64,000 nucleotides of DNA from the IMG/VR virus record IMGVR_UViG_3300021962_000058, positions 1-64,000 of that record, one strand, 5' to 3'. Numbering within the stretch: position 1 is the first letter of the stretch; every line of letters begins with the position of its first letter. A program made the translations under genes and the position numbers. Below the pieces are notes generated by a model. The model was not told where the DNA came from, did not search any database, and worked only from the letters and a program-made list of their open reading frames with translations. This DNA is from a virus. Of this stretch, positions 11,174 through 27,079 are shown piece by piece.

Positions 11174-11197
11174 ACGAGGACAATCAAGGAAACTGAA

Positions 11198-11698: not shown

Positions 11699-11701
11699 GT
11701 T

Positions 11702-12272: not shown

Positions 12273-12298
12273 AAGAAGGTAATCGAGGCACTCCACCG

Positions 12299-12466
12299 AT
12301 GAAGACCTACCGAATGCTGATTGAGTATTGGGTTCCTGATGAGGATGAGAATCTCTTTGAAGAGAAGATCATTCAGTCCCGTTCTTCTTGTGGTAAGATT
12401 GCAGATGATTATCTGGCACAAGATCGTACTAATCTCATTCGCTCTGTTGAAGTCACTCCTGTTTGA
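12299..12466 (+). CDS. hypothetical protein (55 aa)
   Basis: Hand-translated MKTYRMLIEYWVPDEDE...; directly after promoter. Confidence 0.65.
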   Translation: MKTYRMLIEYWVPDEDENLFEEKIIQSRSSCGKIADDYLAQDRTNLIRSVEVTPV

Positions 12467-12469
12467 ATC

Positions 12470-12673
12470 ATGCAACTCTCCACACAATCTGTTTCTAAAA
12501 TTGCAGATGCACTCAAACCAGTAGTAATTGATTACATTCATGAAGATGAAGGTTATGTTGAGTATATGCAAACGGCAGTAATTGAAGGTATTCGTAATAC
12601 GATGGGTGATATGGATGAAGATTTACTTTTTGAACTGGGTATGCTAATCTTTGATAGGATCGAACTGAAATGA
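12470..12673 (+). CDS. hypothetical phage protein
   Basis: 67-aa ORF. Confidence 0.7.
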   Translation: MQLSTQSVSKIADALKPVVIDYIHEDEGYVEYMQTAVIEGIRNTMGDMDEDLLFELGMLIFDRIELK

Positions 12674-12906
12674 TGACTGAAAAGCAAAACAAAATCATTA
12701 AGTATGTTCTGGTCGGTGGAGTTGTTATCAATACGTTAATGTGTCTGAATCTTTACCGACAGATGCTCTCACTTCAATATCAATTTACACAACTTGAAAG
12801 CGATTCGATGAGTGCCATTCAATCATTGAGTCGTTATGTTTGGGAGATGAAGAATCCTCATCTGAATAATTCAAATAACTATCCTGCTGCTGGTGACTTT
12901 GAATGA
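12670..12906 (+). CDS. small membrane protein
   Basis: One TM segment, coupled. Confidence 0.65.
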   Translation: MMTEKQNKIIKYVLVGGVVINTLMCLNLYRQMLSLQYQFTQLESDSMSAIQSLSRYVWEMKNPHLNNSNNYPAAGDFE

Positions 12907-13217
12907 TTGAAACTCTAATTGCTGGTCTTGCATGTGGTGTTGCTACATACTACGGAATTGGTGACGGATTTCATGGACAAGTTACGGCAAATGGTGAGCG
13001 GTTTGATGCTTATCGTTGGACTGCAGCTCACCCTTATCTTCCTATGGGTTCACGCATACGGGTAACCAATCAGGATAACGGTAAGCAGGTGATCGTAAGA
13101 GTCAATGATCGTGGTCCTTATTCACATGCAGACCTAGATCTTTCTTATGCAGCATTTGCTCATATTTCTTCTACGTCAAAAGGTAACGCTACTGTTTGTT
13201 GGAGAGTGATCGGATGA
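12903..13217 (+). CDS. rlpA: RlpA-like lytic transglycosylase (double-psi beta-barrel)
   Basis: ATYYG...TANGE.FD...TAAHP.LP.GS...V.VRVNDRGP...DLS.AAF. Confidence 0.9.
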   Translation: MIETLIAGLACGVATYYGIGDGFHGQVTANGERFDAYRWTAAHPYLPMGSRIRVTNQDNGKQVIVRVNDRGPYSHADLDLSYAAFAHISSTSKGNATVCWRVIG

Positions 13218-13585
13218 AAAAACTAATTCTTCTTGCCACACTGATGCTGTCGTCTCCTGTCTATGCACAGACAGAATCGACCTATCGACCATTTCGTTAT
13301 GAAACCTCTTGTGCATTGATGAATGATGGTGAACCAATGACTGATCTGTGTGTGGTGATTGAAACTCGCAACAAGGGTGGATTTCTTCGCACTCGTAATA
13401 TCTTCTCCAATCGATTTGGTCTGACAATCAAATCGTGGTTTGATAAGGAGAAAGGATTTATGACTTGGGATAGTCATAATCAGTTTGCCTATAAGTGGGA
13501 ATATAAACTTGGTGAGGTTGGTGAACTTGGTAACTGGTCAAATGTAATGCCAGGATTTTTTGTACAAAATGTAAGTTGGGACTGA
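13214..13585 (+). CDS. hypothetical protein with signal peptide
   Basis: MKKLILLATLMLSSPVYA. Confidence 0.7.
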   Translation: MKKLILLATLMLSSPVYAQTESTYRPFRYETSCALMNDGEPMTDLCVVIETRNKGGFLRTRNIFSNRFGLTIKSWFDKEKGFMTWDSHNQFAYKWEYKLGEVGELGNWSNVMPGFFVQNVSWD

Positions 13586-13590
13586 AACAA

Positions 13591-13794
13591 ATGAAAGAAG
13601 TTAATGTAAGTTTAAATGTTCATGAAATCGGTGTGATTTTATCTGCACTACAAGAACTGAATCTACGTGAGGAAAATAGAATTGCACGTGAATATGGAAG
13701 TGTACCTGCACTGTATGCAAAACTTCACGATCTCTGGGAGCAGATGGACACTTCCGAAACTGGTCTACGGTACGATGTGGTGCCGTCGTTCTGA
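13591..13794 (+). CDS. hypothetical phage protein
   Basis: ORF ending in a box-encoded tail. Confidence 0.7.
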   Translation: MKEVNVSLNVHEIGVILSALQELNLREENRIAREYGSVPALYAKLHDLWEQMDTSETGLRYDVVPSF

Positions 13795-13802
13795 CCTATA
13801 CT
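13744..13802 (+). promoter_or_regulatory. box-type promoter (degenerate)
   Basis: ATGGACACTT-CCGA-AACTGGTCTA; TATACT 29 nt after the box. Confidence 0.65.
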
Positions 13803-13827
13803 ACAAAGGTAGTCAAGGGAACACCTG

Positions 13828-14031
13828 ATGAAACCCATTTCATTCACGTCTGGGCAACTGCTGGATCTGATTGCTCTTCTTGAAGAGAAAGAGGATGCTC
13901 TCTATGATGCAGAAGACAAGGGACTCTCCGCTTACTATATGCAAATGGGAGTGCAGTTTCAGCGAATGTATGATCGTCTGCAAAGTCTTCCTGGTGAAAA
14001 GCGTGTTGTCGAACTTGTAGCACAACAATGA
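13828..14031 (+). CDS. hypothetical phage protein
   Basis: 67-aa ORF after promoter. Confidence 0.7.
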   Translation: MKPISFTSGQLLDLIALLEEKEDALYDAEDKGLSAYYMQMGVQFQRMYDRLQSLPGEKRVVELVAQQ

Positions 14032-14170
14032 AAACGTCCTACTGGTTTCTGGGTGTCATTGCCATTCTGATGTGGAATGGAATGATTGCCCGACGTGATG
14101 CAGAACTGTTTCGGGCATATGATCAAATCTGTGCTCAACAACCACACAATCCACAGTGCATTTATTCCAA

Positions 14171-14353
14171 ATGAACGACGAAGACATTCGACAGTTTATG
14201 AATGCTTTTGAAGATTTCACCAAACATGTAGAGGTTGAAGAGTTCAATCATTCTGCCTGGACTGCTGCCCGACAGTATACGGATCACTTCTATGAGCAAA
14301 AAGCGGCAGAGTTAGAAGTGACGGTTGATTATTATATGCAGGAGTTTCTATGA
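14171..14353 (+). CDS. hypothetical phage protein
   Basis: ORF ending KAAELEVTVDYYMQEFL; coupled to small ORFs 14028..14174 and 14350..14520. Confidence 0.7.
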   Translation: MNDEDIRQFMNAFEDFTKHVEVEEFNHSAWTAARQYTDHFYEQKAAELEVTVDYYMQEFL

Positions 14354-14481
14354 CTGATGAAATGAAACTGATTCTTGCACTGATGCAGATTGAGAATCTG
14401 ACCAATCTGATTGAAGGAAATGAGTATCAAAAGTTTCTTTATGGACATCTCATTTCAGTGCAGGTTGAACTACAAAGACAG

Positions 14482-14510
14482 TTGACAAACCTAACTCATT
14501 CATCTAAAAT
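14482..14510 (+). promoter_or_regulatory. sigma70-type early promoter
   Basis: TTGACA-17-TAAAAT. Confidence 0.75.
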
Positions 14511-14533
14511 TAAGGAGTAATTTACCAAAAGAA

Positions 14534-14764
14534 ATGAAATCACTTTATATCGTTGACTACTGGGTGCCGTTTCCTTCTTCTGAATACGGTGGTGTAGTTT
14601 CTCTGATTGCCGAGAATGATACAGAGGCATTTGAATTGCTTTCTAATGAGGAAGGATTCGATGATCGTTATACGAATCTGATTATGCCCAATGTCGTCAA
14701 GGCACAGAAGTTTCAACTGGTAGATGATTATCAGTCTGGTATCATTGACGCATTTACGACCTGA
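14534..14764 (+). CDS. hypothetical phage protein
   Basis: 76-aa ORF after promoter. Confidence 0.75.
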   Translation: MKSLYIVDYWVPFPSSEYGGVVSLIAENDTEAFELLSNEEGFDDRYTNLIMPNVVKAQKFQLVDDYQSGIIDAFTT

Positions 14765-14770
14765 TTAACT

Positions 14771-14962
14771 ATGGAAAGACTCTATCGCATTGAAGAACTG
14801 TGTACAACTGGTTGGGAACTGGTTGATGAGAAGTATGTTGATATGACAAAGGAAAGAACGAAAGAAGTTCTTGATCAACTGATTGCAGACGGTTATAATC
14901 CGAATACACTGAGAGCAGTTCCAAATCCCCAACCACAAAACTTCATTCCCAGTGACAATTGA
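14771..14962 (+). CDS. hypothetical phage protein
   Basis: 63-aa ORF. Confidence 0.7.
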   Translation: MERLYRIEELCTTGWELVDEKYVDMTKERTKEVLDQLIADGYNPNTLRAVPNPQPQNFIPSDN

Positions 14963-15233
14963 ATTTCCACACACTGCACCACAAGGTTATTCTTATGAAT
15001 TCGTTCAGTTCAAAACTCATGTTATTGCAGTGTGGATTCATAATCATTACAGGTTTGTTTACAATGGTGGTGGCATCACTCGTAGTATCTGGGGATTCTA
15101 CAACACAAAGACAAAGTGCTACCACTCTCCTATCAACGCCAAGACAGTCGGTGATCAAGTAAAGATCGAACAAACAACTCCTTACTCTGCAATGATTATC
15201 AAACGTACACCATTAGAACTTGCGTATGTATAA
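14952..15233 (+). CDS. hypothetical phage protein
   Basis: 93-aa ORF. Confidence 0.7.
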   Translation: MTIEFPHTAPQGYSYEFVQFKTHVIAVWIHNHYRFVYNGGGITRSIWGFYNTKTKCYHSPINAKTVGDQVKIEQTTPYSAMIIKRTPLELAYV

Positions 15234-15480
15234 ACCAAGACTGAATGATTATGTCAAGTGGACAAAGGGTGTTGAGGGTTGGGTTTACTTCGTGGATCAA
15301 GAGTATATTACGATTGAGACAATGGTAGTGCCCAAAGATCCAATTAACATCGAACATTGTTCATTGCACAAGAATCATCGTCTTTTGGTTATTTGTTATC
15401 AGGAACAATGGAAAGAGTTGAATCAGATTGGGTATCGTACTGATAAGTATTCAGAGTCCATTATTCCCAAAGAGTTATGA
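15226..15480 (+). CDS. hypothetical phage protein
   Basis: ORF, ATG 15226. Confidence 0.7.
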   Translation: MYKPRLNDYVKWTKGVEGWVYFVDQEYITIETMVVPKDPINIEHCSLHKNHRLLVICYQEQWKELNQIGYRTDKYSESIIPKEL

Positions 15481-15728
15481 AGCATAGGAAAACAGTATGG
15501 CGTTTATGGGCAAAGGCAATCGGTGAAAAGGCAAGTAAAGATGACAGAGAATCAGATCACATTGCTCATATACGCACTGTTATATTTCTCACTTATCTCA
15601 TTACTAACGTATTCATTGTTGCAGGCGTAATTCGACATTGGAATGACAATCAAAATGAAATACCAGGTTGTATACTACAAATTGAAGAAGGACAACAAGA
15701 AAGCGAAACAAGAAGCAATTTTCTATAA
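15477..15728 (+). CDS. membrane-associated hypothetical protein
   Basis: WRLWAKAIGEKAS...TM...IRHW; its tail overlaps a further small ORF 15655..15810. Confidence 0.65.
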   Translation: MKHRKTVWRLWAKAIGEKASKDDRESDHIAHIRTVIFLTYLITNVFIVAGVIRHWNDNQNEIPGCILQIEEGQQESETRSNFL

Positions 15729-15806
15729 CATTGAGGATGCTACATTATGGGAACAACACGTGAAGAAACAAGGTTACCTGAACTCAGAGATCGTACCACT
15801 GTTTCA

Positions 15807-16022
15807 ATGAAGAATAGAGTTATCTACTATCCTTCATTAATCCTAATCAGTATTGTATCGTTTGCGTTAGGATCAAATGTATACAGAGAGTCAATCATTA
15901 ATGATACTTTGAAACTGTGTAATCAAAAGCAATTAGAGTGTAAGTTCAAGTATGATATGGTGATGTATCAAGAGACAGGTAAAGTACCTTATACTCAACC
16001 TACTAAAGATAAAACCAAATAA
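15807..16022 (+). CDS. small membrane protein
   Basis: N-terminal TM helix; ATG 15807. Confidence 0.6.
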   Translation: MKNRVIYYPSLILISIVSFALGSNVYRESIINDTLKLCNQKQLECKFKYDMVMYQETGKVPYTQPTKDKTK

Positions 16023-16812
16023 AACCTTTCCAGGTATAGCGACCTTTACTTTTTAATGCTTTTGTAAGACCAGTTCCTCTACTATTACCACCAACTTTTC
16101 TAATAGCATCAGCAATACTCTCAAAGTGATATTCTTCCCAAGTTACTTTATTGATAGCTTTAACTGCTTTTTTCTTACTTTTAGTTTCAAGTAATTTCCA
16201 TCTGTAACCATAACACTTATATCCCTTACGAGCAGATAAAAGGATATTGCTATTTTTATTACGGTCACCAGCAACTTCTTCTGCTGCATCACGAGCATTA
16301 TCCCATTCTCTGATTTCACCAGTTTCTATATTCAGTCCTTGTATCTTTATACCACAGTGCTTACCGTTACCTCTATTTTCATCTGTTAAGAATCCCCATG
16401 GTTGATATTTCGCTTTTTCGGTTAAAGTAGTTTTTATATTATTAACCTCTTCATCTGTTCTTTCTCTATTAGATGCTATTTCACTTAATTTTTGTTTTGT
16501 TTCATTACTGAATACTGGACGACTTCCACCGCTTGTTGCATTATAACCTTCTGCACTTTCAAAGGTATTGTATTTTTCTATCCAGTATTGTTCTTTTTCA
16601 TCTAATAAACTTTCATCACATTCATCTATTTCTTTAATCATGAAGTTGTGATTACCATACTTACGCATAGCACGATGTAATGGTTTATCACTCATTCTTA
16701 ATGCTTCTTGTATGTGTTGTTGCCACCTTTTATTCATACCTTGGGTGGTCTGTCCAACATATTTGTGTCCGTTCTGTTTATTGACGATGAGATAGATGAT
16801 TCCTTGGGACAT
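16003..16812 (-). CDS. GIY-YIG homing endonuclease with NUMOD-type C-terminal DNA-binding repeats
   Basis: GIIYLI.N..NG.KYVGQT, R, H, E, GYN; two F/W.S..DA...KG..W repeats; the only long minus-strand gene. Confidence 0.88.
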   Translation of the reverse strand: MSQGIIYLIVNKQNGHKYVGQTTQGMNKRWQQHIQEALRMSDKPLHRAMRKYGNHNFMIKEIDECDESLLDEKEQYWIEKYNTFESAEGYNATSGGSRPVFSNETKQKLSEIASNRERTDEEVNNIKTTLTEKAKYQPWGFLTDENRGNGKHCGIKIQGLNIETGEIREWDNARDAAEEVAGDRNKNSNILLSARKGYKCYGYRWKLLETKSKKKAVKAINKVTWEEYHFESIADAIRKVGGNSRGTGLTKALKSKGRYTWKGFIWFYL

Positions 16813-16991
16813 TTATATTTTAGATAACACTTTTAATATTTTATATATTCTTTATGTTATTTTATATTATTATTTTGGTTAATTTGTGATTAAATATTTT
16901 GTAATTCTCAATAAGGTTTTGTAATTGATAATAAATAACAGGTTTTATTGAGAATAATAAGAAAATGCTGAGTCTTGTTGCAGCCTTTGCC

Positions 16992-17020
16992 AGCGTAGCA
17001 TAAGACACGCAGTTTGTCAA
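16992..17020 (-). promoter_or_regulatory. leftward sigma70 promoter
   Basis: Minus strand TTGACA-17-TACGCT with extended TG. Confidence 0.7.
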
Positions 17021-17060
17021 GTCCACCGCCCGCGAAAATGCCACGAGACCCACACAAAAA

Positions 17061-17345
17061 CTCGACGAGATCCATACTAGACTTATGAGATCTCGACGAG
17101 ACCTTATGTTACGAGATGCACATAATTCTCGACGAGAGTACATATATATTGGTATGATTCTCGACGAGACACACATCTAGACTAGATTGTATCTTGTCGA
17201 GTTTTATGGTATAATACGAAAGCGTTCACACAATCTCGACGAGCTTATGTACGACGATTACGATCTCGACTATACGTATAGTAACGATTATGTAGATCTC
17301 GACGAGGACACATACCACGAGTATGGTATAACGGATCTCGACGAG
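17061..17345. repeat. seven copies of CTCGACGAG (iteron-like array)
   Basis: Exact copies at 17061, 17092, 17128, 17160, 17235, 17298, 17337 plus partial copies. Confidence 0.9.
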
Positions 17346-17402
17346 GATTATGCACGAGATACACAAGATTATAACGATCTTGCGTATCGTCATTATGCAT
17401 GA
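17247..17402 (+). CDS. small Asp/Tyr-rich hypothetical protein
   Basis: MYDDYDLDY...; TGGTATAAT upstream at about 17207-17215; repeats encode DLDE. Confidence 0.5.
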   Translation: MYDDYDLDYTYSNDYVDLDEDTYHEYGITDLDEDYARDTQDYNDLAYRHYA

Positions 17403-17432
17403 TATAATCTAGACACATCGCACTAGACACGT

Positions 17433-17585
17433 ATGTTAGCACAGAAGCGCCTAGTCACAGTCACACTCGACATCATGTGTTATGATGACCTGGATCTAGA
17501 CAATATTAACTGGCGAGATGTATTAGATCTCGAACCCAATGAGGATGTCCATTGTAAGATCCAGGAGCACGATATCGATTGGTAG
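17433..17585 (+). CDS. small acidic hypothetical protein (50 aa)
   Basis: Hand-translated MLAQKRLVTVTLDIMCYDDLD...DIDW. Confidence 0.55.
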   Translation: MLAQKRLVTVTLDIMCYDDLDLDNINWRDVLDLEPNEDVHCKIQEHDIDW

Positions 17586-17609
17586 TGTGCCAGTTTAAAT
17601 ATTGGCACA
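17551..17609 (-). promoter_or_regulatory. leftward box-type promoter
   Basis: Box TGTGCCAGTT-TAAA-TATTGGCACA 17586-17609; minus-strand TACAAT (17551-17556) 29 nt away. Confidence 0.6.
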
Positions 17610-17663
17610 GTACTTCATTCTCAATAAGCAACCCCTTATTGAGAATTCTAATATTTCATAATA

Positions 17664-17727
17664 TTTCAAGGCAGGGGGAGTGGCGATGTATTTTCGTCGG
17701 CAGGGATACCCTTCCCCTCATTGAATT
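17664..17727 (-). ncRNA. candidate leftward non-coding RNA, copy A
   Basis: Follows minus-strand promoter; homologous to 22756-22820; no credible ORF. Confidence 0.5.
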
Positions 17728-17733
17728 TCTTAT

Positions 17734-17830
17734 AAGATAGCAGGCGGCCGACCCCAATTGCAAGGGGTCTTGTGCCAGTTCTTCTAGTGGCACAATGTTG
17801 CCCCAAAGCACCCTGATCGGGGTTTATGTT
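17734..17830. promoter_or_regulatory. bidirectional box-type promoter
   Basis: Box 17771-17794; rightward TATGTT at 30 nt; leftward TTGCAA-18-TATCTT with the -10 at 31 nt. Confidence 0.75.
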
Positions 17831-17854
17831 GGTTTCGTTCAACACAAAACCCCG

Positions 17855-18058
17855 ATGATTTTCATCACTTACCCCGATCACGGTTGTGTATACACTCTGT
17901 CGCAGGAAGATGGGGATGAGTTGTATTATGCTCCAATCTACCAGAACGGTAGTATTAATCTAGAAGAATTTGCACCCGTTGATTTAGATTCAGCAGACAT
18001 GGATCAGATGGAATTGTTTGACATTCGTAACCGCCTGGTGGAGATGTGCCAGATCTAG
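17855..18058 (+). CDS. hypothetical phage protein
   Basis: ATG 17855 follows promoter leader. Confidence 0.7.
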   Translation: MIFITYPDHGCVYTLSQEDGDELYYAPIYQNGSINLEEFAPVDLDSADMDQMELFDIRNRLVEMCQI

Positions 18059-18129
18059 AAGTGGCACACGGGCACTTTACAAGTGCCCTCATCCGTTCTA
18101 CATTACATTCGTTCCTGAGGGATTCACCA

Positions 18130-18258
18130 ATGTTTGATGAGATGTGGCAGGAGATTCAAGATGCTCCTGGTGAGATCTTTGACATTCCCGAACTTCGTGA
18201 TCTGGATGATGACAAGTTCGATTACAATGAGTACATTCTCTCCAACATTGATTACTGA
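18130..18258 (+). CDS. small acidic protein
   Basis: MFDEMWQEIQD...; ATG after promoter. Confidence 0.65.
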   Translation: MFDEMWQEIQDAPGEIFDIPELRDLDDDKFDYNEYILSNIDY

Positions 18259-18259
18259 A

Positions 18260-18409
18260 ATGACCACCACTTCGTTGACATTTGAAGAACTGGATGCCAT
18301 TCTGGCATTGATTGAGTTTCACGATGATTGGGATGAAGTGAGTGAGATCGTGGGGGCAGATGTTCCTGCCCTCTATGAGAAACTGTCCGAAATGCGTGAT
18401 GAGGTCTGA
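18260..18409 (+). CDS. small acidic protein
   Basis: MTTTSLTFEELDAIL... Confidence 0.65.
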   Translation: MTTTSLTFEELDAILALIEFHDDWDEVSEIVGADVPALYEKLSEMRDEV

Positions 18410-18678
18410 TGTACCGCACACTTTCTGAACTTCGTGACTCTATCAATTCAATGATTGAGAGTCAAGGTGAGAACGCTCCCTGTGCTGCATTTGTATTCAC
18501 CAAAGAAGATGTGTTTGAGTATGATGTAGATGACAATGAGGACAAGTATTTTCCTACTGTCTTCACAGAAGATGTGCTCTGTGATGTAGGTGGATCATCT
18601 TACATTTACGAACAGGTAGGTGAGATGATTGATGATGCAATCCGCCTTCGTAAGAAACTCCCACTCTACGCTAACTGA
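18409..18678 (+). CDS. acidic hypothetical protein
   Basis: 89-aa ORF, TGATG coupling. Confidence 0.7.
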   Translation: MYRTLSELRDSINSMIESQGENAPCAAFVFTKEDVFEYDVDDNEDKYFPTVFTEDVLCDVGGSSYIYEQVGEMIDDAIRLRKKLPLYAN

Positions 18679-18866
18679 TGATGAACCGCACTGAACTCCA
18701 GGATCAACTCATTCAGCAGATGTTGGATGACATGGATCTCAAAACAATGACCCAACTTTGTTATGATTATCTGGATGAGGGTTATGCAAAGTATTCTGAT
18801 GAAGAATTGACCGAAGAGGTTAATCAATACTATCCTGAACTGCTGGATGGTGTGACAGTCGACTAA
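18678..18866 (+). CDS. acidic hypothetical protein
   Basis: 62-aa ORF, TGATG coupling. Confidence 0.7.
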   Translation: MMNRTELQDQLIQQMLDDMDLKTMTQLCYDYLDEGYAKYSDEELTEEVNQYYPELLDGVTVD

Positions 18867-18935
18867 GTGGCACAAGGGGGGTTGCAATGCCCCCTGATCT
18901 GGTCCATACTACTCAAGTCAACGCAACCGACCCCA

Positions 18936-19283
18936 ATGCGTAAGATCGAACAGCAAATGAACGCCGCCATTCGTGACTCCCGCGATTGGAAGTCTGGCAA
19001 CACTGAAGTTACTTTTGACTCTGAAACCAATGAGTCGAAAGTGTTCCTGCATGGCAACCACATTGCTACCATCGGTGATGACTTCGTGCAAATCTTTGAT
19101 GGTGGTTGGCAGTCTAACACCACCAAATCCCGCCTGAACGCTATTCTTCAAGATCACGGAATCAAGGGCGAATGTGTATTCCAGCGCAACTGGAATTGGT
19201 TCGTTCATAAGTTCATCGGGCAGGCAGGAACTTCTCCTGTGTTCAACGAACTCGAGTTCACCAACGGATTCGTGTTCGCCTGA
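18936..19283 (+). CDS. conserved phage hypothetical protein
   Basis: MRKIEQQM...V.LHGNHIA...GGWQS.TTKSRLNA; ATG after promoter leader. Confidence 0.8.
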   Translation: MRKIEQQMNAAIRDSRDWKSGNTEVTFDSETNESKVFLHGNHIATIGDDFVQIFDGGWQSNTTKSRLNAILQDHGIKGECVFQRNWNWFVHKFIGQAGTSPVFNELEFTNGFVFA

Positions 19284-19353
19284 CGAACTGGCACATCGGG
19301 TGCCCACACGGCACCCTCACCCCCTATACTACATTCGTTCACACAAAACACCA

Positions 19354-19920
19354 ATGGAAACCTTCCTCGAGACTTCCTTCCAGAACGTTCGTTCTTCCAA
19401 GCGTACTGATGAGTTTCATAAAGTTCTGCTGGATGAGATTCTGAACGCAAATCCTTCGTGGGCAGAGTATGATTGGAAGTTTGAGTATCAACTTCCCGTA
19501 GATGGTTTTGGTGGTACATTTGACATTGACATTGCTGGGTTTAGTAATGGTGAACTTAAGGTTGCTATTCTTGGCAAAGCACTCAACAGCAACATTAACA
19601 AAAACATCAAAAACTACGCTAACACTAGTGTAGGTGAAGCAGCACGTTTGATGTTCGCTCCTGACATTGAGATGGAAAAAGTGCTGTTCGTGAGTGTTCT
19701 TCCCCGTGTGGCACCACGTTTCAACAAAGCGGGTGAAGTTCAGGGTTTCGATGATGTCGTGAGTGCCAAAGAGCGTACCAAGATTAACCACGTTCTGCAA
19801 GCACAATACGATGGTATTGTTGAGGCAATCGACCTGTACTTTGACATTGAAGGTGTAAAGACTCTGCAAGAGTTCAACACCATTAGCATCAACAATCTGG
19901 ACACTCTGACTCTGGTGTGA
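19354..19920 (+). CDS. restriction-endonuclease-like (PD-(D/E)XK fold) protein
   Basis: FDIDIA...VAILGK...N..N.....GEA pattern; ATG after promoter leader. Confidence 0.45.
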   Translation: METFLETSFQNVRSSKRTDEFHKVLLDEILNANPSWAEYDWKFEYQLPVDGFGGTFDIDIAGFSNGELKVAILGKALNSNINKNIKNYANTSVGEAARLMFAPDIEMEKVLFVSVLPRVAPRFNKAGEVQGFDDVVSAKERTKINHVLQAQYDGIVEAIDLYFDIEGVKTLQEFNTISINNLDTLTLV

Positions 19921-20001
19921 CAGTCTGACAAGTGGAACACGGGGGGTTGAGTTCCCCCCTTCTTCGTGCCATACTACGTTCATCAGCAAACAACCCGACC
20001 A

Positions 20002-20250
20002 ATGCAACTCTACATCCTCAAAGAAGTTCTTTACGATTACACTGACGGAATGGCAGTTATCGCTGCTGAATCTATGCCTCAGTGTGAACAGATCTTTATG
20101 GAAGAGTTTGGGTATTTCACTGATCGTAATGGTGAACGGGTGAAGGATGAAAAGGTACAAAAAGAGTTCAACAATGCTAAGGTTACTATCATCGAAAGCG
20201 TAGGACTTGATGAGGCAGGTATTGTAGAATACGTTTACGGTGGGGGTTGA
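20002..20250 (+). CDS. hypothetical phage protein
   Basis: MQLYIL...YVYGGG; ATG after promoter leader. Confidence 0.75.
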   Translation: MQLYILKEVLYDYTDGMAVIAAESMPQCEQIFMEEFGYFTDRNGERVKDEKVQKEFNNAKVTIIESVGLDEAGIVEYVYGGG

Positions 20251-20893
20251 TAATGACACCATCTACCCGTGCAATCGTAACCACAAGAATGGCAACTCAC
20301 ACACAGAATACGCCAGTCAATTCTGAAGCATTTCGTGCTAATGAAACTGATACGATTGGACTGGTAGTTGTTCTCAGTGGTCTTGCTGTTATTTGTCTCT
20401 TCTCTGCTCTGATTGACTGATGACTGATTTTGTTTCTGAATCCGAAGTGAAGCAAATGATGCTCATTGAGGCACTTGAGTATTACATTCAAGGATTGAAA
20501 GATGATAATTGTAATCAGGCAGCGATTGATGCCTTCACCGACCTTTTGACTGAGATTGAGAATGACTAACGAACAAAAGATCCAAGCACTACCCACAATC
20601 CGTACCTTCCCATATACGATTGGTCTCCGTACATACTTCTCGGAAGAAGAATATCAAAAAGCACTCCACGATTTCCTGACTTGGAGAAACCATCAACAGA
20701 GCAAAAGGAACCGCACTAATGATGACTGACACAGACAAAGTAGAAGCACTGAGTGACCTTCTCTCTAATGTCATTCACTCTCTGGAGATGACAAAATATC
20801 TTATTGATGATGCAGATAAAGCATCATCGGTCGTTCGTGAAGCAGACAAGTTTCACCAACAAATGCTGAACATTCTTTACCCTGACGCCTGAA

Positions 20894-21223
20894 ATGATTA
20901 CCGCAACTGAACTGCTGGACTTTCTCACCAAAGCACAAAAAGTTTCTCCTTGTGGAGCAACCTTTCGTCAAACTGATGAAGGTTATAAAATCACTCTGTA
21001 TTGTGATTGGCACGATGATGGCAATAACTATAAACAATCTATTTTCATTGACAACGAAGGTGAATCCACTTGGAATAATGGAGGAGACTATGATTTCTAC
21101 ACAATGGATAACATTTTGGATGAAATGCTTGTGAAACAACAAGAGAAAGAAATCAAAGCACAAAAGCGTAAAGAACTGATTGAATCTCTCACACCAGAGC
21201 AAAGAGAACTGCTGGGGGTGTGA
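20894..21223 (+). CDS. hypothetical phage protein
   Basis: 109 aa, ends LTPEQRELLGV; several sub-60-aa ORFs fill 20253-20890. Confidence 0.75.
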   Translation: MITATELLDFLTKAQKVSPCGATFRQTDEGYKITLYCDWHDDGNNYKQSIFIDNEGESTWNNGGDYDFYTMDNILDEMLVKQQEKEIKAQKRKELIESLTPEQRELLGV

Positions 21224-21301
21224 CAGTTGACCTAGTGGCACACACCCCCTTGTGCTGCCTTCCCATTCGTGCCATACTACGTTCATCAGCAAACAACCAC
21301 G

Positions 21302-22201
21302 ATGCAAAACAAGCACCAAGAGCACCCCGAAGATACCATCCTCACGGGTGATTTGACCGTGCTCGACTGGTTCGTGACACCTGGCACCCTGAGCGTTAAG
21401 ATTGACGGAGCACCCGCAATCGTGTGGGGGATTGATCCTGCGACTGGTACGTTCTTCGTGGGTACAAAAGCAGTATTCAACAAAAAGAAGATTCGTATTG
21501 CACACTCTCACGATGAGATTGACCAACACTATGAAGGCAACGTTGCAGACATTCTGCACACTTGCTTTGACATTCTGCCCCGTACTGAGACAATCTATCA
21601 GGCAGAGTTCATCGGGTTTGGTGGATCTGATGAGTACACTTCCAACCTGATTACGTATCAGTTCCCTGAGATTGTCACTCAAACTATTATCATCGCTCCG
21701 CATACTTGCTATTATGCTGAGAATGATCTGCGTGAGGCAGTAGCGTATCCTGATCGTGCAACTTGGAATGATACTGAAACGGTCAAGTTTGTGAAACCTG
21801 ATGCCTACATTCTGCACGGTCAAGAATCGTTCGCTGATGTAGAAGAAGTGTGCAACTTTGCCCGCCAGATGGCAACCACCTGCCAGTTCGTTTCTAACAC
21901 CGAAGCGGCAAAGATTAAAGTTGCCATTAACGCTTGCATCCGTGAGCAACGTGAGATCGAAGATGATGCATTTGGATGTGATCCTAACCTGATTCGTTTG
22001 TGGAAACTGGTTAAATCTATCAAAGAGGATTGCCTATTCCTGTGCCGCAACAATGGTCCCGCAGCATACATCAAACAGGACCGAATTGATGCGGAAGGTT
22101 ACACAATGACCAATGAGTTTGGTATGTTCAAACTGGTGAAGCGTGAAGTGTTCTCCTACCACAACTTCACCAGCGGACGCTTTCAGTGTACCAGTGCCTG
22201 A
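21302..22201 (+). CDS. conserved T4-like phage protein with ligase/nucleotidyltransferase-like motifs
   Basis: KIDG, YQAEF, EGY and KLVK motifs; ATG 21302 after promoter leader. Confidence 0.65.
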   Translation: MQNKHQEHPEDTILTGDLTVLDWFVTPGTLSVKIDGAPAIVWGIDPATGTFFVGTKAVFNKKKIRIAHSHDEIDQHYEGNVADILHTCFDILPRTETIYQAEFIGFGGSDEYTSNLITYQFPEIVTQTIIIAPHTCYYAENDLREAVAYPDRATWNDTETVKFVKPDAYILHGQESFADVEEVCNFARQMATTCQFVSNTEAAKIKVAINACIREQREIEDDAFGCDPNLIRLWKLVKSIKEDCLFLCRNNGPAAYIKQDRIDAEGYTMTNEFGMFKLVKREVFSYHNFTSGRFQCTSA

Positions 22202-22270
22202 ACCGTCCACCTGAACCCGCAGGGGGGCACTGCTGCCCCCTATACTGATCTCAGTTCACAAGCGAACCCA

Positions 22271-22468
22271 ATGCCTAACACCGCTACCCTGATTGCCATC
22301 GGTGAAATGATCGTTAATGCATCTGAGACGTTGCCTGCAACCACCAATGCAAACATCCGCATTATGCAGGGTGAGAAGTGTGGCGCTGAGATTCTACGTC
22401 TGATCGTTCGTGATAACTTAGGTGGCGCTGCCAATGTTATCACCAATGCCCTTTGGGTCACTCGCTGA
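22271..22468 (+). CDS. hypothetical cassette protein
   Basis: 65 aa between two promoter repeats. Confidence 0.7.
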   Translation: MPNTATLIAIGEMIVNASETLPATTNANIRIMQGEKCGAEILRLIVRDNLGGAANVITNALWVTR

Positions 22469-22535
22469 ACTGGCACAGGGGGGACTGAGATCCCCCCACC
22501 AACCCCCTATACTGACTTCAGTTCAAACGAAACCA

Positions 22536-22697
22536 ATGCAACGCCTTGACGTGATTTGCCCCTCCGCTCCTTGGGAGAACACTACCACCGATGAGGATCG
22601 TGCCTGGGATCTGTGCCTGTCACTCTCTGAGGAATACGGTTACGCTCAGGTTCGCCAGAACGGTATGATCATCGGTGACTACACTGACGGTCGCTGA
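22536..22697 (+). CDS. hypothetical cassette protein
   Basis: MQRLDVICP...; ATG after leader. Confidence 0.7.
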   Translation: MQRLDVICPSAPWENTTTDEDRAWDLCLSLSEEYGYAQVRQNGMIIGDYTDGR

Positions 22698-22704
22698 ATG
22701 ATAC

Positions 22705-22736
22705 AAAAGGGGGAGCACATACGCTCCCTTTTTTTA
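22705..22736. terminator. bidirectional intrinsic terminator
   Basis: AAAAGGGGGAGC-ACATAC-GCTCCCTTTTTTT. Confidence 0.75.
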
Positions 22737-22755
22737 TACTTTTTCTTTTTTTTTA

Positions 22756-22820
22756 TTTCAAGGCTGCCCCCGTGACGACCTTTTTCGTCATCAGGGCTAC
22801 CCCGCCCCTCCTTCGCTTGT
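22756..22820 (-). ncRNA. candidate leftward non-coding RNA, copy B
   Basis: Follows minus-strand TATACT (22827-22832); homologous to 17664-17727. Confidence 0.5.
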
Positions 22821-22826
22821 GACCTT

Positions 22827-22922
22827 AGTATAAGGCCGCGGCAACCCCATACAACCCCCAGTGTGCCACTTTCTGAACTGGCACCCTACCCCCACCATCC
22901 TGCCCACTGCTGCCTCTATACT
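22827..22922. promoter_or_regulatory. bidirectional box-type promoter
   Basis: Box 22862-22885; TATACT 31 nt to the right and 29 nt to the left (minus strand). Confidence 0.8.
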
Positions 22923-22944
22923 GATCTCATCAGCAACGGACCCC

Positions 22945-23124
22945 GTGCAGACCCTCAAAGCAACCGCCATCGCCCTGCTAGTCATCACACTGGCAACCGC
23001 TGGTTACTTTGCTCTGCTTCGCAATGGCAATGCCCGCATCGAAGCGAAGTGCCAGGCATCAGGTGGGCAGGTGCTTGTGACACCTGGTCAAGTGTCCAAA
23101 TGCCTCCTGCCCGCTGCCCGCTGA
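22945..23124 (+). CDS. small membrane/secreted cassette protein
   Basis: GTG start after leader; TM helix followed by C...GG...C. Confidence 0.6.
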   Translation: MQTLKATAIALLVITLATAGYFALLRNGNARIEAKCQASGGQVLVTPGQVSKCLLPAAR

Positions 23125-23157
23125 CCCCTTATACTGATCTCAGTTCACACAACACCG

Positions 23158-23322
23158 ATGAGCACCGCAACCCGCCTCACCGCAAACCAGGCAAAGAGCG
23201 CCATCTACGATCTGGCGGATGACTTCTCATGGGAAACCGTTGCTAAGGAGATGGTCGCCCGCATGAGTGGTGATGAGGCACGGGACTTCCTCGAGGACTT
23301 CCAGCGCCTCTATGCCGACTGA
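23158..23322 (+). CDS. hypothetical cassette protein (54 aa)
   Basis: Hand-translated MSTATRLTANQAKSAIYDLADDF... Confidence 0.7.
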   Translation: MSTATRLTANQAKSAIYDLADDFSWETVAKEMVARMSGDEARDFLEDFQRLYAD

Positions 23323-23393
23323 GGCACTGGCACAAGGGGGGCACAGACCCCCCACCCCGACCCGCTACAATACTCTCACACGCAACCGATCCG

Positions 23394-23567
23394 ATGCGAA
23401 TCGAAGTCCGTTACCAGACCCCCTACAACGCTTGTGAGTGGCGGTCGCAGTGGTTCCCCACGCTGGCAGAGGCAGAGCGTATGGTAGAGTTCTACCGCTC
23501 CTGCGGATCGCCCTCTCACATCGCCCCCAGCAGCATGGCACAGTTCGCTCACCTGATTCCCGACTGA
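23394..23567 (+). CDS. hypothetical cassette protein (57 aa)
   Basis: Hand-translated MRIEVRYQTPY...F.TLAEAERMV.FY; followed by coupled ORFs 23567..23653 and 23650..23817. Confidence 0.7.
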   Translation: MRIEVRYQTPYNACEWRSQWFPTLAEAERMVEFYRSCGSPSHIAPSSMAQFAHLIPD

Positions 23568-23851
23568 TGATCACCGCAGCATTCTTCCTGATCGGTTACA
23601 CTATGGGAGCAGGGCACATCCTGCTCCTGCAACGTATCCTCCGCCACCGATGATCAACACCCTGACCCGCTCACGATCCCCTGAGTTTCACCGCGCCACA
23701 ATGCTCCGCCTGACAATCGCCGCGCTGCTACTCTGGGGGTTCTGGGGTCCACTGTACCCCGTCCGTAGTGTGACAGCAGACGTACTGTCCACTACCGCCG
23801 ACCTCCTGCGTCGCTGACCCCTTATACTGATCTCAGTTCACAAGCGAACCG

Positions 23852-24040
23852 ATGACCCGCACCAACGTCCTGCCCAACGACCTCTGCTCCATCACCCTGA
23901 CTGAGGCACAGTGGAGCACCATCCGCACCGCCGTGCTCTGCCTGGCAGTCGATTGCCGCGTTGCTGGTAAGGGTGCTGACGCAGACTACTACCTGAACGC
24001 CTACAACATCCTGCGGGATGCGATGGGGATGGACGCCTGA
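23852..24040 (+). CDS. hypothetical cassette protein
   Basis: 62 aa between repeats. Confidence 0.7.
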   Translation: MTRTNVLPNDLCSITLTEAQWSTIRTAVLCLAVDCRVAGKGADADYYLNAYNILRDAMGMDA

Positions 24041-24114
24041 GGCACTGGCACACGGGGGGTTCCACCCCCCTACCCTGACCCCTTATACTGATCTCAGTTC
24101 ACACCCGAACCCCA

Positions 24115-24543
24115 ATGACCGTCACTCTCACCGCTTCCTACCGCGACATGCTTGCCGCTGACACTGTAAGCAAGATCGACGAACTCCAGGAGGAGAACTA
24201 CTCCCTGGAGGACATGCTGGAGTTCATTGATACCTACAATGAGAATGATTTTATCGCATACTATGAGGAGTATGTGCGTTGTGGTGAAGCAATCGGTTAC
24301 GATGCTGTTGATGCTCTGATCGATGAAATGGGGTGCGTTTCTGACATTGAAGATTGTGATGAGCGTTTCCAAGGTTGGTATGAAAGTGAGGCAGATTTCG
24401 CTGAGCAGTTCTACTCTGATCTCTACGATGTCCCCTGTGCTCTGGTGATAGATTGGCAGGCAACCTACGATTCCTCCCTGCGTTACGATTTCACCTGCTG
24501 CGAGAAGTCCTACCGTCAGGTGGCAGTGTTTCGGGACTGCTGA
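24115..24543 (+). CDS. ardA: ArdA-like antirestriction (DNA mimic) protein
   Basis: Highly acidic; FQGWYESEADFAEQ...P....IDWQ....SL..DF matches the ArdA C-terminal pattern. Confidence 0.7.
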   Translation: MTVTLTASYRDMLAADTVSKIDELQEENYSLEDMLEFIDTYNENDFIAYYEEYVRCGEAIGYDAVDALIDEMGCVSDIEDCDERFQGWYESEADFAEQFYSDLYDVPCALVIDWQATYDSSLRYDFTCCEKSYRQVAVFRDC

Positions 24544-24629
24544 GGGACAGTTGAGGGGGTGGCACACTGCTGCCCCCACTGCCCCCACTCCTGCCCTTAT
24601 ACTGATCTCAGTTCACACCCGAACCACCA

Positions 24630-24890
24630 ATGGCAACCGCAACCTACCAGACCAACCTCACCGACCGCACCTACAACGGTTGGACTAACTACGAAACCTG
24701 GAACGTTGTGCTCTGGATTGAGAATGATGAGAGCATCTACAACTTCATTCAAGAGAATGACATTTGCTGCTATGAAGAACTGCTGGAAGCATTCTATGAT
24801 CACGGCAGCATTCAGACCCCTGATGGTGTGATGTGGAACGACCCTAAGATCAACCGCGCTGAGATCAACGGCGACGTGTTCGATTCCTAA
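24630..24890 (+). CDS. conserved phage hypothetical protein
   Basis: YNGWTNYETWNV.LWI.N.E motif. Confidence 0.75.
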   Translation: MATATYQTNLTDRTYNGWTNYETWNVVLWIENDESIYNFIQENDICCYEELLEAFYDHGSIQTPDGVMWNDPKINRAEINGDVFDS

Positions 24891-24958
24891 ACTGGCACAA
24901 GGGGGGCACCAACCCCCCATCCTGACCCCTTATACTGATCTCAGTTCAAACGAAACCG

Positions 24959-25129
24959 ATGACCGCTGACCTTGCTGCCTCCCTGCTCAACCGTGCCGCT
25001 AACGGTGCCGAACTGCTGAGCATCCTGGATACGATCGCCAACGACATTGCAGACGCCAACATCGCTGACTGCGCCGCCCATTATGCTCGCATCAGTGCCC
25101 AACCTACCCTGAGCGAAGTCCAGTTCTGA
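24959..25129 (+). CDS. hypothetical cassette protein (56 aa)
   Basis: Hand-translated MTADLAASLLNRAANGAELLSILD... Confidence 0.7.
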   Translation: MTADLAASLLNRAANGAELLSILDTIANDIADANIADCAAHYARISAQPTLSEVQF

Positions 25130-25198
25130 TAGTGGCACAACGGAGGGGGATGACCCTTCCCTTTTGCCTCTATACTGATCTCAGTTCAAACGACCACT

Positions 25199-25405
25199 AT
25201 GTGCCCAATCGACGCCTTTGAGATCCACCTGCAACTGTGTGAGGATCTCTACGATCTGGCAAACGCCATCGCCGCTGAGATGTATGGTTGCGATCTGCAC
25301 CGCCTGGACCCCTCTGAGATCGAATGGTACAATGAGCGGGTGACCGCCGACAATCTGGAGGAGATGGCAAACGACCTTGCCGCTGCCGCTTGGCAGTCCT
25401 ACTGA
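25199..25405 (+). CDS. acidic cassette protein
   Basis: 68 aa between repeats. Confidence 0.7.
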   Translation: MCPIDAFEIHLQLCEDLYDLANAIAAEMYGCDLHRLDPSEIEWYNERVTADNLEEMANDLAAAAWQSY

Positions 25406-25442
25406 TCTGCTACAATACTCTCAGTTCACAAGCAACCGACCC

Positions 25443-25613
25443 GTGTTCATCACCAACGACACTGCTGCCAACGACCCCGCCTGCCAGGCAGCGATGAAAG
25501 CATACGCCGCCCAACTCAAGCGGGAGGAGGAGCGCCGCCAGCAGATCCTGGCAGGCACCTACATCCCCTGCCCTGTCCAATCTACGGTCTGGCACATCAG
25601 CGACCGCGACTGA
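25443..25613 (+). CDS. hypothetical cassette protein
   Basis: GTG start after leader. Confidence 0.6.
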   Translation: MFITNDTAANDPACQAAMKAYAAQLKREEERRQQILAGTYIPCPVQSTVWHISDRD

Positions 25614-25655
25614 CCCCACCGACCGACTAGGATACTCTCAGTTCAAACGAAACCA

Positions 25656-25841
25656 ATGACCACCACTCAGAACCTCCGCTCCCTGATCGCTCACACCCTG
25701 ACTGAGATCGACCGTGAGTTTCACGGTTGGACCTTTACCGCTGATGACTTCGCTGGTGAGTCGATCCACGATCTGCGGGAGTTCTGCTACCGCCACCACT
25801 CCCCCATCGTTCGGGCACTGCCCACGACGGTGATGATCTGA
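25656..25841 (+). CDS. hypothetical cassette protein
   Basis: 61 aa between repeats. Confidence 0.7.
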   Translation: MTTTQNLRSLIAHTLTEIDREFHGWTFTADDFAGESIHDLREFCYRHHSPIVRALPTTVMI

Positions 25842-25894
25842 GGGGTCCGCCCCTTTATCTGCTACAATACTCTCAGTTCACAAGCAACCGACCG

Positions 25895-26095
25895 ATGACC
25901 CGCCCCAACCTGGAAACCGAACTGATCAACGCCCTGAATGATCTCACCCCAGCAGAGCGCCAGGCATTGGCCGCGGCAACCCCTGCCGACTGGGCTGAGG
26001 CAGGTGCTGAAGTTCTGAATGACCCCACCTTCTGGGGTGAGATCGCTGCCGCTTTTGCTGAGGGTTTCACACGCGGTTTTGAGAATCGCCGCTGA
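25895..26095 (+). CDS. hypothetical cassette protein
   Basis: 66 aa between repeats. Confidence 0.7.
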   Translation: MTRPNLETELINALNDLTPAERQALAAATPADWAEAGAEVLNDPTFWGEIAAAFAEGFTRGFENRR

Positions 26096-26146
26096 TCTGA
26101 CCCGCTGATCTGCTACAATACTCTCAGTTCAAACGACCCCAGACCG

Positions 26147-26347
26147 ATGACCGAAGCATACGCGATCTTCACCACTGGCACCGACTACTACGACCGCCCC
26201 GAACTGTTCGGACTCTATGTTTCCGCTGAGAAGGCAGAGGCAGAGGCAGCGGTGCTCCGCGAGCGCCTGGAGGATCCCGACTGTGCAGAATTCGAAGGGC
26301 AGCGCCTCTACGATCAGGTGACCGTGACCTACGTTCCGATCCGCTGA
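26147..26347 (+). CDS. hypothetical cassette protein
   Basis: 66 aa between repeats. Confidence 0.7.
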   Translation: MTEAYAIFTTGTDYYDRPELFGLYVSAEKAEAEAAVLRERLEDPDCAEFEGQRLYDQVTVTYVPIR

Positions 26348-26415
26348 GATCCGATGGGGGGTTGACCGATCGCCCCCCTACCCTCTACAATTCTCTCAGT
26401 TCACAACCCGAACCG

Positions 26416-26604
26416 ATGAACGACACCTTCGCTCAGATCCTCTGGAACGCCACCAACCCTGAGACTGGTACGATCCGATTCTCCACCGCCGCTCAGGCAG
26501 CAAAGGAACATGGTCTGTGGGATGACTTCCGCAGCGACTATGCCACCCTCTCTCAGTTCGGCGGTGTTGATACTGGTGAGTTCCTGGAGTGGTTGGGGTA
26601 TTGA
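26416..26604 (+). CDS. hypothetical cassette protein
   Basis: ATG after TTGACC-18-TACAAT promoter. Confidence 0.7.
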   Translation: MNDTFAQILWNATNPETGTIRFSTAAQAAKEHGLWDDFRSDYATLSQFGGVDTGEFLEWLGY

Positions 26605-26654
26605 CCCCTGCCCCCTGATGCCTTACAATTCTCTCAGTTCACACCCCACCGATC

Positions 26655-26840
26655 ATGGCAATCTACTCCGCCTGCTCCAACCTTGAAACCCGCGAAACCA
26701 TGTGGGTTGCACGCAAGACTGATGACGCCCCCCAGTACACGTTCGCTGGTCAGATCAACCCCGTAGAGGGTTGGTGGTTGGCAGGTGTCTCCGCCGATCG
26801 CTACGCTTCGGACGTGGTGGCACCCCAGTGGGAGGGGTGA
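26655..26840 (+). CDS. hypothetical cassette protein
   Basis: ATG after TTGACC-17-TACAAT promoter (26601-26629). Confidence 0.7.
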   Translation: MAIYSACSNLETRETMWVARKTDDAPQYTFAGQINPVEGWWLAGVSADRYASDVVAPQWEG

Positions 26841-26928
26841 CCCCCCATCCTAGCACACGGGCAGTGGGTGCGTGGGATGCAGGTCCCCCGCCGCCCGCCC
26901 CGTGCGGTCGCGGCGCGTGATGGGGGGT
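26840..26928. other. very GC-rich fold-back element closing the cassette array
   Basis: ACCCCCCATC pairs with GATGGGGGGT, enclosing about 70 nt of GC-rich non-coding sequence. Confidence 0.55.
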
Positions 26929-27079
26929 TGTTATAAAAACCCCTAACTACCCTAACCTACAAAGTGTTACGGACGCGAGAGAAATATCAGACTCATTAAA
27001 CATCGAAAATCAAAAAATTTTTCGCCAATAAAAAGTTCTCATAAGGTTGATATATAAAAAATAAAAAAATATCAAAAGA

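Follow-up and report, generated by a model that had tools for sequence, protein, structure and literature searches.

The DNA discussed here (the ‘window’) is a stretch of 64,000 nucleotides, positions 1 to 64,000 of IMG/VR virus record IMGVR_UViG_3300021962_000058. The record as a whole comprises 91,149 bases and belongs to a T4-like cyanomyovirus, whose nearest named relatives by DNA are the Synechococcus phages S-SRM01, S-H9-1 and S-T4. On the minus strand of the window lie two homologous elements, A (17659–17730) and B (22750–22822), each with a hairpin on its left and a perfect copy of a palindromic box, GTGCCA-N10-TGGCAC, on its right. We read them, with a confidence somewhat short of even, as copies of a gene for a small structured RNA, one that would act in trans, as a regulator or a protein-binding molecule, and would be produced along with the genes that share these boxes. 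At the level of sequence comparison, the homology of the elements, the size of their family, the geometry of their promoters, the hairpin and the strand that carries it, and the lack of coding constraint are established. We infer that an RNA is produced, and likewise the site at which it ends and its binding partners. Of the roles such an RNA might have, early regulation appears the most likely.

As we picture it, the RNA would be ~110–120 nt long, non-coding, and transcribed leftward from the promoter formed with the palindromic box. Its parts, in order, would be a leader of ~12–14 nt; a hairpin, H1, with the loop RRGGUA; a linker; a conserved tail; an A/U-rich stretch; and the stem–loop of the convergent gene. 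Acting in trans, it may offer the loop and the tail as recognition surfaces to a phage or host protein, or to an RNA partner. The same box serves the rightward gene and the RNA, and so the two should be made together. Most genomes appear to maintain two diverged paralogs, which we term T1 and T2.

Cyanomyoviruses kill a large share of the picocyanobacteria of oceans and lakes, yet almost nothing is known of how they control early transcription and replication, and few phage-encoded RNAs are known. The family described here spans freshwater phages and, with more diverged copies, marine phages of Prochlorococcus, and it provides a testable molecule in the culturable phages S-SRM01, DSL-LC03 and P-SSM2.

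A family of elements in cyanophages

In the model alignment A and B are identical at 48 of 73 columns (66%), which bears out the proposal of an earlier reading of the window, made without database searches and referred to below as the sequence-only reading, that the two are a homologous pair. Three motif scans of IMG/VR yielded 92 distinct homologs, and a covariance model with one helix, R1, was built from a 77-row alignment, A3. Over the whole record R1 has exactly two matches: B (22750–22821; 86.5 bits, E 1.7e-19) and A (17658–17730; 77.2 bits, E 4.6e-17). The next-best match in the record has an E of 0.57. R1 made 135 matches, 114 of them distinct, in 100 sources, and 16 further matches in 59 other loci, diverged copies at 30–43 bits included.

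Among named phages, Synechococcus phage DSL-LC03 carries a copy that scores 81.9 bits, and S-SRM01 carries two, on one strand and 1.55 kb apart. The Prochlorococcus phages P-SSM2 and P-SSM5 match more weakly, at ~29–30 bits, and S-SKS1 and S-T4 have no R1 match at E up to 0.1. Searches with blastn against named phages at E 0.01 returned nothing; the copies in these phages surfaced only through R1 and through short-query searches (E up to 10). Wherever a named genome carries a copy, the element lies in intergenic DNA that bears no annotation. When 185,579 prokaryote species were scanned, each represented by one genome, a single match emerged, on a contig from the bin of a Flavobacteriales metagenome-assembled genome (NZRO01000035.1, L208:6040–6200). 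This contig has the box, the hexamer TATCTT and the entire element, its stem reading GGUGG/CCACU, and because box, hexamer and hairpin are all present it is almost certainly a mis-binned cyanophage. With one match among so many species, and that on a cyanophage-like contig, an origin from the cellular host is ruled out.

Neither Rfam 15 nor the annotation of any of the five named genomes in which it occurs includes this RNA family. Against Rfam 15 the window has no match at the gathering score, and A and B have none at E up to 10 over 17500–23000. No paper that names the RNA or the palindromic box was found in the literature searched. The sequence-only reading had ventured that A and B might represent a new family of small RNAs, and had called for a covariance-model search of cyanophages and Rfam. 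That search found covarying homologs and no Rfam match, and these results, with strong covariation and the strand-specific G:U pairs described below, speak for a new family.

A covarying hairpin and a conserved tail

For 82 close homologs RNAalifold predicts a single helix, in which GGGGN and NCCCU enclose a loop of 6 nt. The closing pair is C:G in 47 of them, A:U in 28 and U:A in five, and A and B themselves differ by a compensatory change at this pair. H1 is, then, a stem of 5 bp, sometimes 6 bp, with the conserved loop RRGGUA. The GGG-N3-CCC mini-hairpin of the sequence-only reading was set in the wrong register; the real structure is this longer stem with its wider loop. In diverged members the loop reads GGGGUA, AGGGUA, GAGGUA or AGGGUC, and the stems around it are remade: GAGGC/GCCUU (DSL-LC03), GGUGG/UCACC, GGUGA/UCACU, GGAGC/GCUCU, GGAGA/UCUCU, AGUCU/GGACU, GCGGU/ACCGU, GGGCU/GGCCU, AGAGCG/CGCUCU, GGCAGU/ACUGCC and CCGGC/GCCGG. 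At least 15 distinct stem sequences, read by eye, surround this one loop.

The numbers agree. In alignment A4, 99.6% of the cells of H1 are paired and four of its five pairs have changed on both sides. Compensatory cells number 85, compared with 25.4 ± 3.5 in shuffled alignments, and none of 500 shuffles reaches the observed value; controls in which the helix was slid along the alignment reach only 24–85% pairing. A4 was fitted to the model and is to that extent biased toward structure; the same helix emerges from MAFFT and RNAalifold.

Beyond H1 comes an unpaired tail that is also conserved: AUCGCCAC, a hypervariable 7-mer, and GCC(U/A)U(G/A)AAAUAAU; in short, AUCGCCAC-N7-GCCUUGAAAUAAU.

Other helices were considered and rejected. 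The GACGA/TCGYC hairpin of the sequence-only reading exists in A and B and is not a conserved structure among their relatives. On the minus strand its second pair is replaced by A.C in 63 of the 82 copies, and on the plus strand another pair is replaced by C.A in 22 of them; no pair is changed on both sides, and the left arm is missing from the CUACUGA-ACAA subgroup and from others. The outer stem AGGGGG/CCCCU, seen in A alone, finds no conservation in relatives and is ruled out, for the 7-mer that it needs is hypervariable and often unable to pair. The same 7-mer rules out an alternative stem, GCCCU:GGGGC, favored when B is folded singly. Helices between the leader and either the AUCGCC region or UUGAA are inconsistent from one subgroup to the next.

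Promoter and transcribed strand

The plus strand between ~7.9 and 24.5 kb carries many small genes, and about a dozen of these share one promoter layout: a box, GTG(C/A)CA-N10-TGGCAC; 30–32 nt; a -10 hexamer (TATAAT, TATACT, CATACT or TACAAT); a C/A-rich leader of ~25 nt; and the start codon. The right half-site of the box is the better kept; on the left, GTGACA is frequent and spoils the symmetry. The two boxes beside A and B, at 17772 and 22863, are perfect palindromes. The gap between box and hexamer is often rich in G+C and able to form a hairpin.

Transcription of A and B is read leftward, on the minus strand of the window, and three independent lines support this direction: the hexamer, the point at which conservation begins, and the wobble pairs of H1. 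Among 92 distinct close homologs, the counts at the hexamer are T(76) A(72) T(75) A(60) N T(68), and its end lies 17 nt upstream of the AGGGG core, or 18 nt upstream of H1’s first paired base. It occupies positions -23 to -18 before the core, and TGGCAC lies at -59 to -54. Across all subgroups, a TAnnnT ends 12–31 nt before H1 in 117 of 118 distinct copies, the distance being nearly always 16, 18 or 22 nt; a TGGCAC half-box with at most one mismatch lies 28–34 nt above the TAnnnT (mode 30) in 82 of the 118. The hexamer itself varies (TATCTT, the commonest, TATACT, TATAAT, TATGAT, TAGGAT, TAGACT, TACAAT, TAGAAT and others), and the TAnnnT frame is kept. No promoter-like reading was seen on the plus strand at these positions. 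The minus-strand -10 sequences that the sequence-only reading noted at both boxes, TATCTT at 32 nt (A) and TATACT at 30 nt (B), have the spacing of the plus-strand box promoters. Its claim of leftward transcription from bidirectional boxes gains support from the conserved positions of hexamer and half-box, kept despite change in the hexamer’s sequence.

Conservation of the family begins at the predicted +1 (ACAAnC...), after a spacer of 30 nt that is variable. Part of this leader may be promoter context, because the mRNAs driven by the boxes begin much alike. The first pair of H1 is G:U in 102 of 114 copies, and U:G or G:U recurs at the closing pair. On the plus strand such pairs would be A.C mismatches, which argues that the minus strand is the one read; the plus-strand reading, with A.C at the first pair in those 102 copies and TAnnnT on the minus strand only, is ruled out. 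If the palindromic box promoters fire both ways, as we predict, the early region can no longer be read as ‘one gene, one promoter’.

Three minor observations concern these promoters. Genes driven by the plus-strand boxes (7905–24565) have leaders of ~25 nt that lack a Shine–Dalgarno sequence and follow a common C/A-rich pattern, TCA..CAAC...ACCAATG. Between box and -10 there is usually a G+C hairpin, and sometimes, as at 9851, a full terminator, which makes each box promoter a terminator–promoter composite. And the box at 17587–17608 has a leftward TACAAT exactly 30 nt off (17556 to 17551), inside a small acidic gene. In relatives this hexamer is TACAAT, TAGACT, TAGCAT, TATAAT or TAACAT; its sequence varies and TAnnnT is constant, which makes a second conserved leftward antisense promoter at 17551–17608 likely.

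Anatomy of the two loci

Positions of the features at the two loci are collected in Table 1. Both elements run into A+T-rich DNA (88% A+T over 17647–17663 at element A and 93% over 22729–22756 at element B) and then a hairpin (17617–17646 and 22711–22728), much as the sequence-only reading described. Its estimate of ~110 nt for the RNAs fits the ~116 nt predicted here for both copies.

Table 1. Features of the loci of elements A and B, in window coordinates
Feature	Positions	Strand	Basis
Palindromic box GTGCCA-N10-TGGCAC, common to the promoters of the rightward gene and of leftward RNA B	22863–22884		Perfect match
-10 hexamer TATACT of the predicted RNA B promoter, spaced 30 nt from the box, with transcription predicted to start from an A at ~22820	22827–22832	-	Sequence and family conservation
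Predicted RNA B, ~116 nt	22703–22820	-	R1 match and minus-strand terminator-like hairpin with CCTTTTGT tail
Hairpin H1 of B: GGGGC / loop GGGGUA / GCCCU	22793–22808	-	RNAalifold and pair counts
Conserved unpaired tail of B: UCGUCAC, variable 7-mer, GCCUUGAAAUA	22754–22778	-	Near-invariant columns in alignments A2, A3 and A4
Stem–loop common to predicted RNA B and the convergent gene 22422–22697	22711–22728		Terminator: strong on the plus strand, weaker on the minus
Palindromic box of the promoters of the rightward gene and of leftward RNA A	17772–17793		Perfect match
-10 hexamer TATCTT of the predicted RNA A promoter, spaced 32 nt from the box, with transcription predicted to start at ~17727	17734–17739	-	Sequence
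Predicted RNA A, at least ~116 nt, 3′ end uncertain	17612–17727	-	R1 match
Hairpin H1 of A: GGGGA / loop AGGGUA / UCCCU	17702–17717	-	Closing pair A:U, against C:G in B
Conserved unpaired tail of A: UCGCCAC, UCCCCCU, then GCCUUGAAAUA	17662–17686	-	Alignments A2 to A4
AU-rich hairpin TTCTCAATAAG/CTTATTGAGAA, between predicted RNA A and the box at 17587	17617–17646		12 bp; no U tract on the minus strand

A downstream stem–loop is present in 95 of 119 distinct copies of the family, and mostly ends 80–110 nt past the start of H1; in 70 copies a run of A precedes it. At B the stem–loop is followed by a U-type tail, CCUUUUGU, and is terminator-like on both strands, which gives the length of ~116 nt. 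A small RNA acting in trans would be expected to have a promoter and a terminator of its own: the promoter is conserved, a terminator-like site occurs at B, and a U-rich tail is lacking at A. The AU-rich hairpin beyond A has a second copy at ~16905–16955, two within 700 bases, and in one relative (L087) it shows a compensatory change (TTCGCAATAAG/CTTATTGCGAA).

Paralogs, neighbors and base composition

Genomes carry from one to four copies, four being found on one contig. The copies fall into two paralogous types, T1 (like B) and T2 (like A), which differ by 1 nt in the linker between two conserved blocks. At 31 of 32 two-copy loci both copies are on one strand, and 27 of the 32 are T1 + T2 pairs, 1–5.3 kb apart. 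T2 keeps its neighbors, namely a small acidic gene downstream (17433–17585 in the window) and the gene across the box (17795–18058). In 44 loci there is also, 1.3 kb downstream on the same strand, a gene for a GIY-YIG endonuclease. In the window this is a homing-endonuclease gene at 16003–16812 on the minus, minority strand (Pfam PF01541, E 1.6e-11), with a TTGACA-N17-TACGCT of its own upstream, at ~17020–16990. The neighbors of T1 copies change from contig to contig.

The bulk of the window is ~34% G+C. This rises to 44% at 17–22 kb and to 55–58% at 22–27 kb, with GC skew reversed, and A and B mark the left edge of each step. Such a stepwise island, 17000–27000, suggests imported gene modules; apart from it, GC skew in the window has no interpretable switch. 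Seven perfect copies of the palindrome CTCGACGAG lie at 17061–17345, 320–660 bases downstream of RNA A in the direction of its transcription, and none lies near B. Their sequence includes the pentamers GACGA/TCGTC, found also in the unsupported inverted repeat of A and B, a weak link that could be due to chance.

What the elements might do

Several findings weigh against an RNA that acts in trans. Only 34 of the 95 stem–loops are followed on the RNA strand by four or more U within 8 nt, and the stem–loop is mainly the terminator of the other, convergent plus-strand gene, so that the 3′ end of the RNA is uncertain. At A the predicted RNA ends at a 12-bp AU-rich hairpin with no U tract, and there too the end is uncertain. 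Many rows of the alignments are close relatives, and independent compensatory events are accordingly far fewer than the counts of cells. Covariation would be the same for an RNA as for a displaced, non-template strand of DNA. Folded singly, A and B both miss H1 and disagree with one another, on which account the comparative structure is the one to trust. Finally, outside the elements themselves the window contains no complement of the loop, the tail or AUCGCCAC.

Among other explanations, the elements could be leaders that act in cis, the hairpin and linear motif working upon polymerase or the transcript in the manner of nut or put sites, or stabilizing its 5′ end. Transcription would then proceed past the convergent terminator, antisense through early genes and, at A, toward the palindrome array and the GIY-YIG gene. 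We regard this as unlikely, though much about the elements invites it. They begin at the predicted +1 of a promoter, just below a conserved -10 and box, a position that would fit a nut-type site, and they are followed by a terminator-type stem–loop that mostly lacks a U tract. Two copies per phage genome is the rule for nutL/nutR and putL/putR, and here, as in lambda and HK022, two paralogs on one strand occupy the first part of what is predicted to be an early transcript. A short hairpin with conserved loop and covarying stem, plus a linear motif, recalls boxB and boxA of lambda nut, a likeness of form only. Downstream of A another leftward TAnnnT stands 30 nt off the box at 17587, and 1.3 kb away is the same-strand GIY-YIG gene seen in 44 loci. 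That gene, however, has its own TTGACA-N17-TACGCT. Downstream of B the genes are convergent for kilobases, with no obvious need for read-through, and the absence there of any same-strand gene weakens the model. Nor do the elements resemble nut or put in sequence: the consensus of A3, judged by eye, has neither the boxA consensus CGCUCUUUA near the hairpin nor a boxA-like CGCUCUU. The hairpin precedes the linear motif rather than following it, the phage is T4-like, and H1 is the one supported hairpin, unlike the two adjacent stem–loops of HK022 put (~70 nt). Cyanobacteria are not known to have Rho, which also counts against such a leader.

A primer for replication, the alternative put forward in the sequence-only reading, would make different use of the same transcript. 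Its G-rich 5′ part would be kept as an R-loop, the A/T tract would unwind, and the hairpin would form in the RNA or the displaced strand. The elements do recall oriF (uvsY) and oriG (gene 34) of T4, which also have a promoter without a -35, apparently dependent on an activator, followed by an A/T-rich tract, and which are also few per genome and belong to a T4-like phage. In A and B the palindromic box takes the place of the -35, the start is G-rich (GGAGGGGCGGGG), a tract of 88–93% A+T follows, copies number one to four per genome, and A is transcribed toward the CTCGACGAG array at 17061–17345; the covariation, as noted, suits a non-template strand equally well. Still, G-richness is not conserved in relatives, whose stems include AGUCU, GGCAGU and AGAGCG, and the model is weaker for it. 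Most of the A/T tract is accounted for by the A run of the terminator on the opposite strand, B has no palindrome array nearby, and GC skew offers no interpretable switch. The conserved part here is an RNA-like hairpin with a tail, unlike the T4 origins, which have no conserved structured transcript and are not known to need one. We think it improbable, then, that the elements prime replication, and hold it equally doubtful that their RNAs are the origin transcripts of cyanomyoviruses, with T1 and T2 corresponding to oriF and oriG and a fold recognized by a phage replication protein. A short peptide has less to commend it. In B, AAGGAG, H1 and an AUG precede a frame of 12 codons (MTKKVVTGAALK) closed by the conserved UAA. 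Many T1 copies, like B, keep this frame open, and its stop lies inside the conserved AAAUAA. The hairpin in T4 gene 38 brings Shine–Dalgarno and AUG together, and H1 could join them likewise. Yet many T1 copies have AAG, AGG, UAG or ACG in place of AUG, every T2 copy is frame-shifted by 1 nt and lacks a start codon, and in one relative (L125) a UAA interrupts the frame. Within the 7-mer Gly-Ala gives way to Pro-Pro, and invariant bases fall at all three codon positions with no third-position pattern. Start-codon loss, the T2 frameshift and the UAA of L125 rule the peptide out as a common function, and we consider it highly improbable in any form. There is, lastly, a slim chance that the elements work solely as DNA—as an operator below the promoter, or as a promoter–terminator cassette at which modules recombine—and that the RNA is a by-product. 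A and B do stand at steps in base composition (34% to 44% to 56% G+C), B-type neighbors vary between contigs, the arms of the inverted repeat GACGA/TCGYC show transitions that fit pairing poorly in RNA of either strand, and the same pentamers recur in the CTCGACGAG array. T4-type phages, moreover, are known to have cassettes of promoter and stem–loop, PeSLs and PmSLs, with promoters of the TTGACA-N17-TATAAT type (PMC2839356, PMC4122927); these, too, are composite promoter-plus-terminator modules repeated in variable early regions, a description that the box promoters with their spacer hairpins fit. But A and B lack a -35 hexamer, their palindromic box lies 30 nt from the -10, there are only two, and it is the part after +1, not the promoter, that is most conserved. 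PeSLs are sigma-70 promoters with stem–loops and have no such transcribed, conserved block, and the papers that describe them (PMC2839356, PMC4122927) do not treat cyanophages. Pairing that is kept while sequence changes is not expected of a protein-binding site in DNA, and the compensatory changes, together with strand-specific G:U at the first pair, weaken this model.

Relation to other small RNAs

As an early RNA that may act in trans, the molecule proposed here would join others of its kind. Cyanomyoviruses and their hosts have small non-coding RNAs and motifs already—the antisense RNA CfrI of S-PM2, Yfr1, and the Rfam motifs PhotoRC, glnA, manA and wcaG—and a small structured RNA encoded by a phage is not, as a kind, new. 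What is new is the architecture (divergence from a palindromic box), the breadth of the family and the pairing of paralogs. Yfr1 has an unpaired C/U-rich motif between stem–loops; here, in contrast, a Yfr1-like ACUCCUC occurs in few copies only, within the variable 7-mer.

Two further observations were made among the relatives. At L148:10429–10500, and in L168, there is a rearranged partial copy, in which a second, inverted H1 with its leader is joined directly to a box (GTGCCGCTTCTACAACTGGCAC then AGGGTTACCCC...). In many relatives, the window not among them, the DNA downstream of the RNA contains a hairpin whose stem covaries around a conserved loop, CACCAC (L183:2575–2700, from S-SRM01; L038, L015, L118, L005, L067, L128, L121 and others). 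It is followed by a promoter of the TGnTAGAAT type and then by a second hairpin, with loop CAAACCC(U/C)UU; the arrangement is possibly another conserved RNA gene.

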